Below, piece after piece: positions 3,409 through 44,428 of a stretch of DNA of 64,000 nt. Where the stretch lies: the sequence record OR544955. The stretch is one strand, 5' to 3'. A model generated the notes under the pieces. That model was not told where the DNA came from and searched no databases. It worked only from the letters and a program-made list of their open reading frames with translations. A program made the translations under genes and the position numbers. This DNA comes from Escherichia phage vB_EcoP_EP32B. How positions within the stretch are numbered: position 1 is the stretch's first letter; every line of letters begins with the position of its first letter.

Positions 3409-4029
3409 ATGTTTAAACGTAAATCTACTGCTGACCTCGCTGCTCAAATGGCTAAACTGAACGGTAACAAAGGTTTCTCTTCAGAAGATAAAGGCGAATG
3501 GAAGCTGAAACTCGACGCATCCGGTAATGGTCAAGCGGTAATTCGTTTCCTGCCGGCAAAAACAGATGACGCCATCTACACACGGCGATTATGACTCTTG
3601 TCCTGTATGTCAGTACATTAGTAAAAATGACCTGTACAATACCAACAAAAATGAATATTCTCAACTGAAACGTAAAACTTCTTATTGGGCTAATATTCTG
3701 GTTGTTAAAGACCCTCAAGCTCCAGATAACGAAGGTAAAGTATTCAAATACCGTTTTGGTAAAAAGATTTGGGACAAAATCAATGCAATGATTGCAGTTG
3801 ATACTGAAATGGGTGAAACTCCTGTTGATGTAACTTGGTTCTTGGTACTGCCGCTCTGGGCGGTGCAGCAGCTGCCGCAGCTTCTGTTGCAGATAAAGTT
3901 GCTTCTGACCTTGACGATTTTGATAAAGACATGGAAGCCTTTAGTTCTGCAAAAACTGAAGATGACTTCATGAGCTCTACCTCATCCTCTGATGATGGCG
4001 ACCTCGATGACCTGTTAGCTGGTCTATAA
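3409..4029 (+). pseudogene. 32: ssDNA-binding protein gene 32, interrupted by two frame-breaking lesions (about 621 bp versus ~906 bp expected)
   Basis: Frame 1 [36 protein letters not shown]...AVIRFLP matches T4 gp32 N-terminus then stops; frame 2 resumes at ...[21 protein letters not shown]...GETPVDVT (zinc-binding region); frame 1 again supplies the acidic C-terminus ...[12 protein letters not shown]. About 20 residues before THGDYD and most of the core after DVT are absent. Confidence 0.8.
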
Positions 4030-8847: not shown

Positions 8848-9944
8848 ATGAGTACAGTTTTTAACACACAACAAGTCGATGTTTTGAATGAACCGATGTT
8901 CTTTGGTTCTGGTCTTGGTATTGCGCGTTATGATATTCAACGACATAAAGTTTTTGAAGAACTTATAGAAAAATCCTTGTCGTTTTTTTGGCGCCCAGAA
9001 GAGGTAAACTTGATGTTGGACTCTGCGCAGTTCAATAAGCTTCCTCAGTTCCAACAAGACATCTTTACAAACAATCTTAAGTATCAATCATTATTAGATT
9101 CTATCCAAGGCAGGGCCCCATCTGCGGTACTTATGGCACTGATTTCTGACCCTTCATTAGATACGTGGGTTGCAACATGGACATTCAGTGAAACTATTCA
9201 CTCTCGTTCGTATACTCATATTATGCGAAATCTTTATACCGATCCATCCAAAGTATTTGATGAGATTGTATTAGACGAAGCAATCATGAAACGAGCTGAA
9301 TCAATAGGTAAATATTACGATGATGTTCTAGACAAGACTCGTCGTTGGGAAAATGCAAGCGTGATTTAATGAAGTCTCTTTATCTCTGTTTGCATGTAAT
9401 TAACGCCTTGGAAGCTATTCGTTTTTACGTATCATTTGCATGTACTTTCAACTTCCATAAAAACATGGAAATTATGGAAGGTAATGCAAAGATTATGAAG
9501 TTCATTGCTCGTGACGAACAACTCCACCTCAAGGGTACTCAGTACATTATCCGTCAACTTCAATCTGGTACTGATGGTGATGAGTGGGTTCAAATTGCTA
9601 AAGAATGTGAACAGGAAGCAGTTGACATTTTTATGGAAGTAAATAGACAAGAGAAGGAATGGGCTGCACATCTCTTTAAAGACGGTACATGCCCGGGTAT
9701 CAATACACAGAGTATGTGTGCTTTTGTTGATTACTTGACTGTGTCTCGTATGAAACAGTGTGGTTTGCCATGTCCAATTACTGATGCTCCGACCAAGCAT
9801 CCGTATCCTTGGATTCGTGAATATCTGAACTCTGATTTAGTTCAAGCAGCTCCTCAGGAAGTTGAAATCAGTTCTTATCTTGTCGCACAAATTGATAATG
9901 ATGTAGACCAAAATGTAATCAATTCATACAAAAAATATTTCTAA
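8848..9944 (+). pseudogene. nrdB: Ribonucleotide reductase small subunit gene, intronless, frame-shifted near 9345-9370
   Basis: ORF 8848..9369 (173 aa, ...TWTFSETIHSRSYTHI...) and ORF 9345..9944 (LYLCLHVINALEAIRFYVSFAC...EGNAKIMKFIARDEQLHL...) together cover R2 iron-centre motifs but lie in different frames. Confidence 0.85.
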
Positions 9945-19879: not shown

Positions 19880-19909
19880 TTTACATCCAAGGACGGATTA
19901 GAGTATAAT
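19879..19909 (+). promoter_or_regulatory. T4-type early promoter
   Basis: GTTTAC 19879-19884; TATAAT 19904-19909. Confidence 0.6.
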
Positions 19910-19933: not shown

Positions 19934-20131
19934 ATGAAATTTTTAATAGCACAAACAGTCCAATTAAAAGGTGTTGGAATTCCTGGGGTGATTTTTAAAG
20001 TTCTCCCTGAATTTAAAACCGCCGCTGGAATTATCAATGAAGCGTATGCTGTTCAATGGGTTGATTGGACTTCTGACATACGTATGGGTAAAGAGTTATC
20101 TCCTATTAAAGGGTTGAAACATGTTGAATAA
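19934..20131 (+). CDS. Hypothetical small protein
   Basis: 65-aa ORF after early promoter 19879-19909. Confidence 0.45.
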   Translation: MKFLIAQTVQLKGVGIPGVIFKVLPEFKTAAGIINEAYAVQWVDWTSDIRMGKELSPIKGLKHVE

Positions 20132-20294
20132 ATTAATCCAGAAATTGTTTGGTACGGAAATGATTGAAGTTACTTATCGTGTAACCGACGTTTTTCCTCG
20201 ATTAAACTACCTAAAAATGACAGAAATTTATCTATCGAAGACCGTATACCTGGATACGGACATTGGGCTGATGTTGAAATTATAAGTGTTAAAG

Positions 20295-20753
20295 ATGTCT
20301 GAATTAGAAATAAGAAGTAATTTCAAATGGCCGTCATGTGCATTAAGTAACTTTGCTCAATGGCCTTTTGTTATGGATGGTATTCAATTCGGAGGTCTTG
20401 AAGGATTTCTCCAAGGATGTAAGGTGAAAAATGTTGAACAACAAAGACGTATATTTGGGTTGTCTGGATTGGCTGCACAGCAAGCTGGAAGGTCTTACGC
20501 AAGAGCTCAGGACCGTGGGACTCTCTTCTGGTTAGGAGTTCCATTTTCAAGATACTCTGAAGCGTGGAAAGAATTATACACAAATGCATATTTTGAAGCC
20601 GCGATCCAAAACAAGGGGTTTCGCGATGCCTTACAAGCCTCTAAAGGAAAAATTTTGAAGCACAGCATGGCCAGCCACCTAACAAAAGATGATACAATAT
20701 TAACCGAAGCCGAATTTATTGACGTGTTAAACCTATTAAGAGACTCTTTATGA
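20295..20753 (+). CDS. YbiA/NADAR-like domain protein (putative N-glycosidase / ADP-ribose-processing enzyme)
   Basis: Motif ...SNFAQWPFVMDGIQFGGLEGFLQGCK... resembles the E. coli YbiA core (SNFAAWP..DG...E.YFQ..KF); ATG at 20295 taken as start. Confidence 0.55.
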   Translation: MSELEIRSNFKWPSCALSNFAQWPFVMDGIQFGGLEGFLQGCKVKNVEQQRRIFGLSGLAAQQAGRSYARAQDRGTLFWLGVPFSRYSEAWKELYTNAYFEAAIQNKGFRDALQASKGKILKHSMASHLTKDDTILTEAEFIDVLNLLRDSL

Positions 20754-21565
20754 AGCCTACTATTTTGACTGATATTGATGGTGTATGTTTAAGCTGGCAA
20801 TCTGGACTTCCTTATTTTGCCCAAAAATATAACCTTCCATTAGAACATATTTTAAAAATGATTCAGGACGAAAAATTTATTTCTCCTGGTAAACTGTTCA
20901 ATACCGACGATAACCTTGGTAAACAATTAATAGAAAAATATAATAGCTCTGATTTTATTCGTTACTTAGCGCCTTATTCTGATGCTCTTCGAGTTATCAA
21001 TAAACTAAAAGAAGACTATAATTTTGTAGCCGTGACGGCGCTAGGTGATTCAATTGATGCTCGATTGAATAGACAATTTAATTTGAATGCTTTGTTCCCA
21101 GGCGCTTTCTCTGAAGTAATGATGTGTGGTCATGATTCTTCAAAAGAACAATTATTTGAACTAGCTAAAACAAAATATAACGTGATTTGTTACGTTGACG
21201 ATTTAGCTCATCACTGTGACCATGCAGCAGAAATTCTTAATGTACCGATTTATTGGTTGGCTCGTGGTGAACGTGATGCCATTCCTCGTACTGCACAACG
21301 TGTACACACGTGGGATGATATTGAATCTCGTTTGGTTCCACCCGAGCATAATTCAGATTCAGATCGTGAAGACCTTTTAAAACGATTGGCGGATTTGCTT
21401 AAAGAATCTGGTGCAACAAGTCCAGGCGCATGGCCTAATCAAATTGGCGCTCCGTCGAATCCGTATACCTGGCGAACCCCAGGACCAACCGATATGCAGC
21501 CATGGTGGACGATTCAAAACTTTCCTTTAGATTCGTCCAAATGGACTTGGTCTATAAATTGTTAA
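20750..21565 (+). CDS. HAD-superfamily hydrolase (putative nucleotidase/phosphatase)
   Basis: N-terminal HAD motif I ILTDIDGV and downstream ICYVDDLAHH-type motif; 271 aa. Confidence 0.5.
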   Translation: MKPTILTDIDGVCLSWQSGLPYFAQKYNLPLEHILKMIQDEKFISPGKLFNTDDNLGKQLIEKYNSSDFIRYLAPYSDALRVINKLKEDYNFVAVTALGDSIDARLNRQFNLNALFPGAFSEVMMCGHDSSKEQLFELAKTKYNVICYVDDLAHHCDHAAEILNVPIYWLARGERDAIPRTAQRVHTWDDIESRLVPPEHNSDSDREDLLKRLADLLKESGATSPGAWPNQIGAPSNPYTWRTPGPTDMQPWWTIQNFPLDSSKWTWSINC

Positions 21566-21574
21566 GGGTTAATT

Positions 21575-21844
21575 ATGTTTGTAGTTCATGATATTACAGA
21601 TGGCAAAAATACCACACGTGACTACGGTCATGTTAACATGTTCTTTCGAGACTGGCCATTGTTTCGTTCAGTAAAAGACGCAGAAATATTTAAAGAGTGT
21701 GTTGAACAAGGGTTCATCTACATTTCAGAATACTATGTTGAAGGTCTCGGTAAATGGATTACCACTTATCAGAAAACGCTGAAATCGCTTCTAGATGAAG
21801 TGGCTTATAATAGAACCGTAACCAAAATCGAGGACATCAAATGA
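21575..21844 (+). CDS. Hypothetical protein (30.1 position)
   Basis: 89-aa ORF immediately upstream of ligase gene. Confidence 0.45.
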   Translation: MFVVHDITDGKNTTRDYGHVNMFFRDWPLFRSVKDAEIFKECVEQGFIYISEYYVEGLGKWITTYQKTLKSLLDEVAYNRTVTKIEDIK

Positions 21845-23261
21845 TTTTAGATATTTTAAACCAAATAGCTGCGATCGGTTCTACTAAAACAAAACAGGAA
21901 ATCCTTAAGAAAAATAAGGACAACAAATTACTTGAACGTGTATATCGTTTAACGTATGCACGTGGCATTCAGTATTATATTAAGAAATGGCCAGGACCAG
22001 GTGAAAGGTCTCAAGCGTATGGCCTTCTTGAATTAGATGACATGTTGGATTTTATTGAGTTCACATTGGCCACTCGTAAACTCACTGGTAATGCAGCAAT
22101 TAAAGAGCTCATGGGTTATATCGCTCTATCGCGAATAAGGTATGGCCTGGACTTATTCAATTGCAACCGCAGATGTTAGCATCTGCATATGACGAGAAAT
22201 TGATTACTAAAAATATTAAATGGCCTGCATTTGCTCAATTAAAGGCAGATGGTGCTCGTTGTTTCGCTGAAGTTCGTGATGACGGTGTTCAATTCTTTTC
22301 TCGTGCTGGTAATGAATACCATGGTCTTACCCTATTAGCAGATGAACTAATGGAAATGACTAAAGAAGCCCGTGAAAGACACCCTAATGGGGTTTTAATC
22401 GACGGTGAATTGGTTTATCATTCATTTGATATTAAAAAGGCTGTGAGCTCAGGAAATGACCTGTCGTTCTTATTTGGCGATAATGAAGAATCTGAAGAAG
22501 TACAAGTTGCAGACCGTAGTACTTCAAATGGTTTAGCAAATAAATCTCTTCAAGGGACTATTTCTCCTAAAGAAGCGGAAGGTATGGTTCTTCAAGCCTG
22601 GGACTATGTTCCTTTAGATGAAGTCTATTCTAACGGCAAAATTAAAGGTCAGAAATACGATGTTCGTTTTGCTGCTCTTGAAAATATGGCTGAAGGCTTT
22701 AAACGAATTGAACCTATCGAAAACCAGTTAGTTCGTAATCTTGATGAAGCTAAAGTGGTTTATAAAAAATATGTTGACCAAGGTCTTGAAGGTATTATCC
22801 TTAAAAACCGTGATTCATACTGGGAAAACAAACGCTCTAAGAACCTAATTAAATTTAAAGAAGTTATTGATATCGCTTTAGAAGTTGTAGGATACTATGA
22901 ACACTCTAAAGACCCTAACAAATTAGGTGGTGTCGAACTCGTATCACGTTGTCGTCGTATTACAACCGATTGTGGTTCAGGGTTTAAAGATACAACTCAT
23001 AAAACAGTTGACGGTGTAAAGGTTCTTATTCCTTTAGATGAGCGTCATGATTTAGACCGTGAACGATTAATGGCTGAAGCTCGTGAAGGTAAATTGATTG
23101 GACGTATTGCTGATTGCGAATGTAATGGTTGGGTTCATTCTAAAGGCCGTGAAGGTACTGTAGGTATTTTCCTTCCAATTATTAAAGGGTTCCGTTTTGA
23201 TAAAACAGAAGCGGATTCGTTTGAAGACGTATTTGGACCGTGGTCCCAGACAGGTTTATAA
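21841..23261 (+). pseudogene. 30: ATP-dependent DNA ligase gene 30, broken by a frameshifting deletion near 22115-22130
   Basis: ORF 21841..22179 = MILDILNQIAAIGSTKTKQEILKKNKDNKLLERVYRLTYARGIQYYIKKWP...LTGNAAIKELMGYI then out of frame; ORF 22161..23261 carries ...KVWPGLI...QPQMLASAYDEK...LKADGARCFAEV (adenylation KxDG) to the C-terminus. About 25 residues between GYI and ANKVWPG are missing. Confidence 0.85.
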
Positions 23262-23402: not shown

Positions 23403-25475
23403 ATGTCTGAACAATTAAATGAAGTGTTTGAATCTGAAGGCAGTCTTCCTGTCGTCAATTTGAACCCTAAAGCTAAAGTTCCACAAGTCTGGAAAATTGG
23501 TGATATCGATACAAATATTGTAGTTCGTTTATTCTCTTACCTTTCCGAAGGCGATGCTGTAAAACAAGTTAAACTTGGCGATAAATACGCTCATGTTGTT
23601 ATTATGAGTCTGTCTGAAAAGGGTAATCTCGCTGAATTGAAAAATGGCCTTGGTCCTGCTCCTATTGATGCAATCAACACCATTTTCAATACAGTATATG
23701 AACAGGTTAAAGCTCTTCGTATGGATGCAGTTCTGTTCCGATTCCCTACCAAGAAATTGAAAGGACGTGGTCAGCAGCTTCAAACTCTTCTTGCTCGTTT
23801 AGTTTCTACTAAAACCGGTGGTCGTTTTAAAGTATTGTCGGCAATGTATCAATTCACAGGTAAACACACCTATGTAATGATGGTTCGTAAAAATGCCAAC
23901 ATTGAAGATATTAAAGGCATCCCTAACATTAACACAGAGTTATACACGAAAGTAGATTCTGATGTTGGCGAAGTTTATGTGAGTAAAAAGACTGGCGAAA
24001 AGGTCACCAAAGAAACGGCTATCGCTGGTTCTATTGCTGCTGTAGAAGAAAAACGTAAAGATAAGCCTGTTATTGCTCGTACTAAAATTTCTCGTCGTGC
24101 TATTGCAGCAAGTCAATCTTTAGAAGCTGACCGCCAAGAAGGTGAGTTATTCCAGAAATACGAAAATTCTGCTAAAGAAGTTAGTGGCCCGGCTACAGCC
24201 GAATTACTTCCTGAAGCATATGAAATCGTACTAGCCCAGGCATCGTCTACAGCAAAAGGCACTCTAGTTGCTGATATCGAAAATAAGATTTATAATCGTA
24301 TTGATGAATCCTTTAGATTTGCTGATGAAGTTTCTTATGGTAGTGTTATTAAGCCAACTTTAGAAAAGTTTGCTAAGAAAATTAAAACTGAAAAAACAAC
24401 ATCTGTTAAAGCATTAGCTGCTTTTGTTGAAGCTGCAAACGAAATTGCAGACTCTATTAAAGACGAATGGTTTGAAGATTTTAGACGAGATAATTTCCAA
24501 CTGGCTGACGACGTTTTAGCTGAAGTATCTGAAAGAACTTGGAAACAACGTAAATCAGCGTTCTTGTCTAATGTGATGTATACTTATGCACGAGAATCGG
24601 CTAGAGGCACCTTTAATATAACAATGAATCGGGACCCTAAACAATACTCTGTTGCTGAAAAACGAGCTATTCGCGAATATGCCTCTTCTGCGTATACCGA
24701 TATCAATAATATGTTGTTAGGTCGTTATAAACCAGATTTTTACGATGTTGCAGATGAAGATGAAGTTAAACGCGCTATTGATGGTCTTGATTCGGCGTTT
24801 TTAAATGGAGACCGTTTACCTGAAGGACTAACGTTATATAGAGCTCAGTCTATCAGAATGCCTATTTACGAAGCAATGGTTAAAAATAAGGTATTCTATT
24901 TCAGAAACTATGTTTCTACTTCATTAGCTCCTATTATTTTTGGCGGGTTTAAAGAGAACGTTGCCCTTGGACTTGCTCCTGAAGAAGTTCGCAAAGAGCT
25001 TAACATTGACAATAATGACGAAGGTGTTACTATTTCTCCTAGTCAAGTAAGAACAGCTATGCATGCGCCAGAACAAATTCGTGTTAACGTTGGATGGGCT
25101 ATTGATGGCGCTCATAAAGTTAACGTGATTTATCCGGGGCAGTTGAGTAATCACCCTAATGAGCAAGAAATTATTTTGCCTAGAGGCATTCTCTTGCAGA
25201 TAAATAAAATTACAGATGCGTCATCTGACACCGGTGCAGGTTTAGAATCCAACCTTAAATTTATTCAAGCTGAAGTTATGTCCTCAGACCAGTTGGACGA
25301 AGCTGTCATTTACGATGGTGATGTTCTCATGGAAACAGGCGAGGTAGTTGCTATGACGGGTGAAATCGAATCAGATGAGCCGGTATCTTTTGCCTCATTT
25401 GTAGAAAAAACTAGTGCTCCTAAAGGATTGAAACTGTTAGCATCTTTGGTTCCGTTTAAATTTGTCCAAGGATAG
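23403..25475 (+). CDS. alt: Alt ADP-ribosyltransferase (virion-packaged)
   Basis: 690 aa (T4 Alt 682); position between ligase and gene 54; ART-type R...STS...E pattern in C-terminal half (...YVSTSLAP...). Confidence 0.75.
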   Translation: MSEQLNEVFESEGSLPVVNLNPKAKVPQVWKIGDIDTNIVVRLFSYLSEGDAVKQVKLGDKYAHVVIMSLSEKGNLAELKNGLGPAPIDAINTIFNTVYEQVKALRMDAVLFRFPTKKLKGRGQQLQTLLARLVSTKTGGRFKVLSAMYQFTGKHTYVMMVRKNANIEDIKGIPNINTELYTKVDSDVGEVYVSKKTGEKVTKETAIAGSIAAVEEKRKDKPVIARTKISRRAIAASQSLEADRQEGELFQKYENSAKEVSGPATAELLPEAYEIVLAQASSTAKGTLVADIENKIYNRIDESFRFADEVSYGSVIKPTLEKFAKKIKTEKTTSVKALAAFVEAANEIADSIKDEWFEDFRRDNFQLADDVLAEVSERTWKQRKSAFLSNVMYTYARESARGTFNITMNRDPKQYSVAEKRAIREYASSAYTDINNMLLGRYKPDFYDVADEDEVKRAIDGLDSAFLNGDRLPEGLTLYRAQSIRMPIYEAMVKNKVFYFRNYVSTSLAPIIFGGFKENVALGLAPEEVRKELNIDNNDEGVTISPSQVRTAMHAPEQIRVNVGWAIDGAHKVNVIYPGQLSNHPNEQEIILPRGILLQINKITDASSDTGAGLESNLKFIQAEVMSSDQLDEAVIYDGDVLMETGEVVAMTGEIESDEPVSFASFVEKTSAPKGLKLLASLVPFKFVQG

Positions 25476-36613: not shown

Positions 36614-38029
36614 ATGGCCTTCACTGTCACGTTATCTCCTCTAACTCCTACAGGGGTTATTGGAGGTTCACAAACATTCACTGCTACACCCGCAGGTGAA
36701 GCTCCAGACGGTACTATTACATACGTCTGGACTGTAGATGATATAACACAGGGCTCTACAGCTGCTACAATGGATTATACTCTTGCTTCTCCAGCAGGAA
36801 CAAAAAAAATTAAAGTGGTTGCAACTAATACACTTTCCGAAGGAGATCCGGAAATAGCTGAAGCATCAACAACTATCACTGTTAATAAGAAAGAAAATAA
36901 TTCCACTATCACTGTTACTCCGGCTTCTCCAGCGGCAGTAGAAATTGGAACAGCAACAACATTCACTGCTAATGTAAACAATAAACCTACTGGTGCTGCT
37001 ATTGCTTATACATGGAAAGTTGACGGGGTCGCTGTCGACGGTCAAAAACAATCAACCTTTGAATATACACCAACATCTGAAGGAACTAAGTCTATAACTT
37101 GCTCTGCCACAGTGACTGCAACTGATTACGTTGATAAAACGGTAGAATCATCAGCGGTTTCTTTGACTGTAAATAAAAAGGCTAATTCTTCAACGCTAAA
37201 AATTACACCAGAGTCTCCGACTACAGTCTTTGGTGTTCCTATTACTTTAACTGCAAATGTCTCTAGTGCACCTTCAGGTGCTACTACATCATTCCAGTGG
37301 TCAATGGATGACAGTAATATTCCAGATGCAACTTCTGCTACGTATAAATTCACTCCAACCGAGGTCGGAAGTAAAACTCTTAAATGCACCGTATCTGTTT
37401 CTGCAACAAATTATGTTACAAAAGAAATTTCAGCAGAAGCAACAGTAGTAACTAATAATGCGACATTTAATAGTGCCACCATTTCTTTATCTCCGCCATC
37501 AGTTAATACTACTGTTGGTGAAACTGCAACTTTAACAGCATCTGTTACTGGTGCTCCGGGTGATACTAATATTGTGTATTCTTGGAAGAAAGACAACGTA
37601 GCAGAAAGTAATTCTACTAATACTTACAGTATTGATACCTCCTCGGCAGGTACTCATACAATTAAAGTTGAAGCAGTATTAACTAAAGATAATTATACTT
37701 CAAAGACAATTAGTTCAACCGCTGAAGTTGTTATTGCTGAACGGACTCCAATTGAACCAGAAGGTGAACTACCTTATGTTCATCCTCTTCCGCATCGTAC
37801 TTCAGCTTACATCTGGTGCGGATGGTGGGTTATGGATGAAATCCAAAAAATGACTGAAGAAGGTAAAGATTGGAAAATTGACGATCCAGATAGTAAGTAT
37901 TACTTGCATCGTTATACGCTTCAGAAGATGATGAAAGACTACCCAGAAGTTGATGTTCAAGAATCACGTAATGGATACATCGTCCATAAAACTGCTTTGG
38001 AAACTGGTATCATCTATACATATCCATAA
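36614..38029 (+). CDS. hoc: Hoc outer capsid protein with four tandem Ig-like domains plus C-terminal capsid-binding domain
   Basis: 471 aa; four ~93-aa repeats each starting near ...ITVTP/LKITP/ATISLSP and ending ...Y.WK.DD / ...TV.NKK; Trp-rich C-terminus (YIWCGWWVMDE). Confidence 0.8.
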   Translation: MAFTVTLSPLTPTGVIGGSQTFTATPAGEAPDGTITYVWTVDDITQGSTAATMDYTLASPAGTKKIKVVATNTLSEGDPEIAEASTTITVNKKENNSTITVTPASPAAVEIGTATTFTANVNNKPTGAAIAYTWKVDGVAVDGQKQSTFEYTPTSEGTKSITCSATVTATDYVDKTVESSAVSLTVNKKANSSTLKITPESPTTVFGVPITLTANVSSAPSGATTSFQWSMDDSNIPDATSATYKFTPTEVGSKTLKCTVSVSATNYVTKEISAEATVVTNNATFNSATISLSPPSVNTTVGETATLTASVTGAPGDTNIVYSWKKDNVAESNSTNTYSIDTSSAGTHTIKVEAVLTKDNYTSKTISSTAEVVIAERTPIEPEGELPYVHPLPHRTSAYIWCGWWVMDEIQKMTEEGKDWKIDDPDSKYYLHRYTLQKMMKDYPEVDVQESRNGYIVHKTALETGIIYTYP

Positions 38030-43819: not shown

Positions 43820-44428
43820 ATGCTTTTAAACTCTCTGCGAGAGCTTTAAATGCTTCATCAGCACTGTTTTTGGTGATTTCCACCGAATTTTCTGATTCTG
43901 ATATTTGTTTAGGAGTAACCCAAGCATCTGGAGCAGAAGGTCCCCACACGGCATCTACGCCGACGGTTAATTTAAATCCTTCGTTCACGATACGGTACCC
44001 TTTATTGGTGTCGGTTAAAGAACCAAGACCACGAGAGGAAACACCTGGAATCCAACCAGCTCGTATATTAGCAGCTAATTTATCGCCGGGACCATGGTCG
44101 CCTTCAATAATTCTAGCGCGTCCATATACATCGTTTCCTTTCCACCACATATCTTCAATAATGATAGCGGCTTGCATAGGGTCAACATTTGCGCGAGGTG
44201 GATGATTTAATTCTCCAAGGGCTTGTTTGGTTGCGCTTTTTCCAAAACGCGTTTAGGATATAAACGTTTATTTCGGTTAACAACCTCTGCCTGAAGAAAA
44301 ATACCTTCTATATAAAGCCCTGGTTTTAAGCCAGAATCTTTTCCATCATGAGATTCCAACATTGGAACGCCATCAATAATCTCACCGGGTTGACCCCAAG
44401 TTTCAATAAGTAACTCGGGTTTATTCAT
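43815..44428 (-). pseudogene. 21: Prohead protease gene 21, broken by a frameshifting deletion near 44230-44236
   Basis: ORF 44207..44428 = [31 protein letters not shown]...RLYPKRVLEKA then out of frame; ORF 43815..44177 = MQAAIIIEDMWWKGNDVYGRARIIEGDHGPGDKLAANIRAGWIPGVSSRGLGS... Correct frame resumes at ...TKQALGELNHPPRANVDPMQA; about 10 residues missing. Confidence 0.85.

Follow-up and report, generated by a model that had tools for sequence, protein, structure and literature searches.

A Mosigvirus genome sequence very probably carries an intact orthologue of T4 gene 30.3 (adfN), which encodes a phage NADAR

The resistance of T-even phages against DarTG1 has been mapped to gene 30.3, which was renamed adfN (Johannesman et al. 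2025, PMC11825919). Its product gp30.3, now AdfN, is a "phage NADAR" that is both necessary and sufficient for this resistance (PMC11825919, PMC11125620, PMC11543638). T4 AdfN counters DarTG1 enzymatically and does not bind DarT1. Purified AdfN(T4) removes ADP-ribose from DarT1-modified DNA, the E36A mutant does not, and the rescue by AdfN(T4) is impaired by E36A, by K43A, or by a C-terminal truncation; a truncated T4 adfN allele has a lowered activity (PMC11825919). Phage RB69 is sensitive to DarTG1, and in its gp30.3 the last 15 residues are cut off by the insertion of a T at nt 411. Its plaquing on DarTG1 hosts is restored by ectopic AdfN(T4), but uninfected cells, T5, and Bas25 are not rescued, which suggests a further T-even factor (PMC11825919). 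The mechanism of NADARs was defined in papers of the Suskiewicz group, which reported that T4 gp30.3 hydrolyses guanine-ADP-ribose and not thymidine-ADP-ribose, that K95 of the E. coli C7 NADAR, the equivalent of K43, is essential, and that the residue in the last strand is a His in phage NADARs (gp30.3), a Glu in YbiA, and an Asp in DarG1 (PMC11543638, PMC11125620, PMC12945103).

The window, i.e. the whole stretch of 64,000 nt that was analysed, contains the following gene:

20295..20753, + strand: adfN, 152-aa phage NADAR, predicted DNA guanine-ADP-ribose glycohydrolase, T4 gene 30.3 orthologue

The ORF extends from an ATG to a TGA, and the latter overlaps with the start codon of the gene that follows (ATGA at 20750-20753). 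Translation could alternatively begin at an in-frame GTG (20286), which would add three residues; the ATG at 20295 was taken because it is the annotated start in T4 as well as in SA79RD, a Mosigvirus and the closest relative. The protein matches Pfam PF08010 (Phage_30_3, "Bacteriophage protein GP30.3") with an E-value of 1.8e-69 and 232.3 bits, at a cut-off of 36 bits, and this is a full-length match that spans positions 1-138 of the 138 profile positions. PHROG 652 is also matched. The protein is identical to T4 gp30.3 at 147 of 152 residues (97%), its identity to gp30.3 of SA79RD is 99.3%, and that to a protein of E. coli O157 typing phage 6 is 100%. The PF08010 match and the identity to T4 gp30.3 far exceed what chance could give. 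At the DNA level the identity to T4 adfN is 88.4%. The third codon positions account for 42 of the 53 nucleotide differences, and 40 codon differences are synonymous versus five that are non-synonymous. Therefore, the reading frame is under purifying selection. The five substitutions compared to T4 AdfN (K11R, E89P, I120V, M125I, and H128G) are conservative or of surface type, and none of them is located in an invariant column of the family alignment. We are highly confident that this ORF is orthologous to T4 gene 30.3, has been kept intact, and encodes a phage NADAR, for which the activity of T4 AdfN is predicted. An out-of-frame internal ORF of 75 aa, which is annotated in T4 as 30.3', was also considered. 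In the window its codon 35 is a stop codon, so that only 34 aa remain (20431..20535, + strand), and 30.3' was rejected as a conserved gene because of this interruption.

An earlier note on this DNA, which was made from the letters alone, had recognized a YbiA/NADAR (DUF1768) signature in the ORF and had proposed a profile search and a structure prediction as checks. The outcome of the profile search was divided. The window protein alone did not match Pfam NADAR (PF08719) at E<=1, and as a direct query it had no match in the PDB, NCBIfam, or PADLOC. Therefore, the link to NADARs could be made only with a family profile or by modelling the structure. A set of 107 homologues was collected, and the 64 full-length ones were aligned (alignment A1). 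PF08719 (DUF1768) is matched by 22 of these 64 family members, with a best E-value of 1.5e-7. A search of the PDB with the family HMM found a single sequence, E. coli YbiA (2b3w, E=0.0048), and the comparison of A1 with YbiA by hhalign yielded a probability of 93.9% and an E-value of 1.6e-7 over 91 columns. The profile similarity to NADAR/YbiA is thus present at the family level only. The structure of the window protein was predicted with AlphaFold2 and A1 (pLDDT 93.2, pTM 0.88), and the model has the fold of the NADAR superfamily, an alpha-helical core with small flanking sheets. The signature of the earlier note is borne out by these family-level results and by the residues that follow, which were found at their places on the alignment to YbiA.

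20340..20423, + strand: NADAR signature block (residues 16-43, ALSNF...EGFLQGCK), predicted to form the ADP-ribose pocket; aligns to YbiA 27-55
20400..20402, + strand: codon for the catalytic Glu36, invariant in 64 homologues; aligns to YbiA E48
20421..20423, + strand: codon for the phosphate-coordinating Lys43, invariant in 64 homologues; aligns to YbiA K55
20661..20663, + strand: codon for His123 in the last beta-strand (strand 120-123 in the model), a hallmark of phage NADARs, invariant in 64 homologues
20706..20747, + strand: C-terminal helix (residues 138-151), seen in the model and intact; full activity depends on it

The motif SNFAQWPFVMDGIQFGGLEGFLQGCK, which had been quoted in the earlier note, comprises residues 18-43 of the window protein. 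Eleven columns of the signature block are invariant in the 64 homologues, i.e. A16, L17, S18, N19, F20, F25, E36, G37, F38, Q40, and K43, and E36 and K43 make up the E-x6-K motif of the NADAR superfamily, which combines the catalytic Glu with the phosphate-binding Lys. His123 comes to lie opposite to E125 of YbiA after an extension of the hhalign alignment by a single residue. When the DNA was aligned with that of T4, RB69, and SA79RD, the T insertion at nt 411 was seen in RB69 and was absent from the window, and therefore the C-terminal helix has been kept in this allele. Judged from its sequence, the window allele, which is free of the helix-removing frameshift of RB69, should be active.

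The gene order around adfN is that of T4, namely 30.5, 30.4, 30.3, 30.2, 30.1, ligase, alt.1, and alt. Two features of this locus are:

19880..19909, + strand: candidate sigma-70 (early) promoter upstream of 30.5-30.4-adfN-30.2 (TTTACA-18-TATAAT, 11 of 12 matches, consensus match only)
20750..21565, + strand: gene 30.2 orthologue, HAD-fold hydrolase, start overlaps the adfN stop (ATGA); context only

In SA79RD a promoter is annotated at the same site. The HAD-type hydrolase adjoining the ORF had already been noticed in the earlier note, and correctly so: gp30.2 has a Rossmannoid fold, the DxD of motif I, the Lys of motif III, and the acidic pair of motif IV. In its model a confident HAD core (about residues 1-222) is followed by a disordered Pro/Trp-rich tail (about 225-271); the homologues have lengths of 196-347 aa, and the tail varies widely in length and sequence. 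Only in T4-like loci (L012 and L013) does a gene for gp30.2 adjoin the one for a gp30.3 homologue, and tblastn detected none within 4 kb of the gp30.3 homologues in five contexts that are not T4-like (L006-L011 and L014-L016). A conserved 30.2-30.3 module was therefore rejected, and the arrangement is lineage synteny. One of the distant contexts is a metagenomic contig of 308 kb (L006-L008), in which NUDIX and Thg1-like genes lie at a distance of about 2.6 kb from the gene for a NADAR of the gp30.3 family, a neighbourhood that hints at further functions related to NAD/ADP-ribose or RNA repair. Members of the gp30.3 family thus occur in genomes of jumbo-phage size, and a further example is Caulobacter phage CcrPW (MH588545.1).

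In comparison with SA79RD, about a dozen segments of 19-214 nt are also cleanly deleted from the window. The deletion closest to adfN has destroyed the gene directly upstream:

20121..20285, + strand: gene 30.4 remnant, frameshifted by a 37-nt deletion at 20197|20198; only the first 26-29 residues match gp30.4

This deletion lies 98 nt upstream of the adfN start. It could be ruled out that the 37-nt gap reaches adfN, because it is contained within 30.4 and adfN is intact; adfN and 30.2 are untouched by any of the deletions. The ligase gene (gene 30, 21841..23261) has a clean 73-nt deletion at 22124|22125, which splits the protein into residues 1-95 in frame 1 and residues 120-497 in frame 3. 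No phage record shares the junctions of the window in 30.4 and in the ligase gene, and the missing segment is present in 104 of 104 and 149 of 149 matching records, respectively. Further deletions versus SA79RD are found at 3569-3575, 3837, 9348-9356, 12128, 17951, 23289, 33840, 42448, 44235-44242, and 53224. They hit gp32 (two), nrdB, pseT.3/alc, rIII (142 nt), alt.1 (102 nt), an ORF adjacent to uvsY, the major capsid protein gp23 (34 nt), the protease gp21, and the neck protein gp14. Changes of the reading frame were verified by tblastn for gp23, gp32, nrdB, and gp21. As essential genes are broken (ligase, gp23, gp32, nrdB, gp21), the sequence as given is unlikely to represent a viable phage genome, and an artefact of the assembly or an editing of the window is the probable cause. 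Because the gene-breaking deletions include one in 30.4, the expression context of adfN is uncertain here. Two additional differences to SA79RD are of another kind. A segment of 671 nt with a homing endonuclease gene is absent from the window at about 2638-2642, and in the hoc region (36742-37754) about 1 kb is replaced by unrelated sequence. Unlike the small deletions, these look like natural differences of the mobile-element or variable-gene type.

How AdfN might act can be outlined from the work with T4. AdfN would probably be made early in infection as a minimal single-domain NADAR. Upon infection of a DarTG1 host, the DarT1 toxin would put ADP-ribose onto guanines of the phage DNA and block replication. 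AdfN may then hold the ADP-ribose in a pocket that is made up of the SNF...E36-x6-K43 block and of the last strand with H123, and cleavage of the N-glycosidic bond between ribose and guanine would release ADP-ribose, leave the DNA unmodified, and allow replication to proceed. AdfN would thus be an orphan, phage-borne "antitoxin" that operates without binding the toxin. By analogy, we infer that the window allele acts as T4 AdfN does, i.e. that it cleaves guanine-ADP-ribose and counters DarTG1, and the Mosigvirus from which it stems should be resistant to DarTG1, unlike RB69. The mechanism has an additional requirement in vivo, as T4 AdfN rescues from DarT1 only within a T-even infection. The product of gene 30.2, which is translationally coupled to adfN via ATGA throughout the T4-like phages, might be the factor that AdfN(T4) needs. 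The idea is based on the rescue of RB69, which has an intact gp30.2, and the lack of rescue of T5, Bas25, and uninfected cells. However, T-even phages encode many other candidates for a helper, and the absence of gp30.2 from the five distant contexts weakens the idea of an obligatory module, so that a helper role of gp30.2 appears very unlikely.

The earlier note had proposed that the protein is an anti-defence enzyme that removes ADP-ribose from DNA. This is supported by the 97% identity to T4 AdfN, which has been tested against DarTG1 (PMC11825919), and three other readings have to be weighed against it. The note had also pointed to alt and suggested that the phage encodes both a writer and an eraser of ADP-ribosylation, and AdfN could accordingly be imagined to tune the ADP-ribosylation of protein or RNA by the phage's own ADP-ribosyltransferases, i.e. 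Alt as well as ModA and ModB, which are located elsewhere. The writer is real, since alt (23403..25475), 2.6 kb downstream on the same strand, encodes an ADPrib_exo_Tox enzyme, and NADARs also clear RNA of guanine-ADP-ribose in vitro (PMC12945103). It is the pairing that did not hold. The annotated targets of Alt are RNA polymerase alpha and other proteins, whereas in all NADAR substrates that have been reported the ADP-ribose is attached to a base of a nucleic acid or nucleotide (PMC11543638, PMC11125620, PMC12945103). In addition, the genetic phenotype maps to host DarT1 (PMC11825919), and gp30.3 homologues of distant phages have no alt within 4 kb. The pair of Alt and gp30.3 was rejected in the absence of a shared substrate class, and a function of AdfN as eraser for Alt is highly improbable.

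The deletions in neighbouring genes such as 30.4 and ligase might raise the suspicion that adfN is a non-functional relic in this sequence, as it is in RB69, all the more as databases contain many gp30.3 alleles that are truncated or fused. Such decay is hardly conceivable for a full-length ORF with the identities to SA79RD and O157 typing phage 6 given above, in which all invariant residues are kept and the RB69 insertion is absent. Even less can be said for a metabolic N-glycosidase of the YbiA type, which would clear intermediates of the riboflavin pathway instead of de-ADP-ribosylating DNA. The fold is common to AdfN and E. coli YbiA, RefSeq uses the name "N-glycosidase YbiA", and NADARs have been linked to riboflavin metabolism (PMC11125620). 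However, all family members have His123 in place of the last-strand Glu that defines YbiA, and the T4 orthologue has been shown to hydrolyse guanine-ADP-ribose on DNA and to have a phenotype with DarTG1 (PMC11825919, PMC11125620), so that this explanation can practically be dismissed. The assignment as an orthologue of T4 AdfN is therefore retained.

Homologues of gp30.3 were found in 1510 of 50,697 phage records, and in a sample of 30 of these 1510 the label was almost always "hypothetical protein". A transfer of the annotation to gp30.3 homologues would thus be worthwhile. Among the database entries for gp30.3 of T4-like phages, many are shortened to 83-126 aa or joined to domains of 30.4, 30.7, or 30.8 (P0004-P0007, P0013-P0018, P0022, P0051, and P0102). 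This suggests that adfN has recurrently been inactivated or rearranged, as in RB69. Some of these entries may be artefacts of contig ends or gene calling. An intact adfN predicts that this Mosigvirus is resistant to DarTG1, unlike RB69, the type phage of the genus, and this is relevant for the choice of therapeutic phages against DarTG1-carrying hosts. The gene is an ordinary one and its assignment is correct but not new, as its function was published in 2023-2025. Therefore, the discovery value is small, and the practical value remains.

Compared with the known systems, the window gene is closest to T4 adfN (PF08010), with which it shares the length of 152 aa, E36, K43, and H123, the C-terminal helix, and the neighbours, i.e. 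30.4 upstream and 30.2 downstream with the overlap of stop and start, followed by 30.1, ligase, and alt. T4 is a Tequatrovirus, whereas the genome of the window is that of an RB69-like Mosigvirus. RB69 has the genus-level backbone in common with the window, and the gp30.3 DNA is nearly identical, but its gp30.3 is a natural loss-of-function allele due to the T insertion, which the window allele does not have. E. coli YbiA (2b3w) and a eukaryotic NADAR (P. nicotianae 8bau) have only 18-20% identity to the window AdfN and a Glu instead of His123. The window protein thus lacks the last-strand glutamate of the YbiA family, its His123 replacing E125 of YbiA. YbiA is encoded on the chromosome in a LexA-regulon context, in contrast to the phage-borne AdfN, and it also acts on cytidine-ADP-ribose (PMC12945103). 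In DarG1 (BC4488 family; G. lovleyi 8bat, E. coli C7), the last strand has an Asp and the protein is extended at its N-terminus (219 aa in 8bat), whereas the window AdfN has His123 and consists of the 152-aa core only. Furthermore, DarG1 is encoded beside DarT1 and is an antitoxin in uninfected cells, which AdfN(T4) is not. The window AdfN is an orphan between 30.4 and the HAD-like 30.2; no DarT1 partner gene adjoins adfN, and PADLOC had no matches. The AdfN of the window would work like DarG1, yet it is no DarG1.
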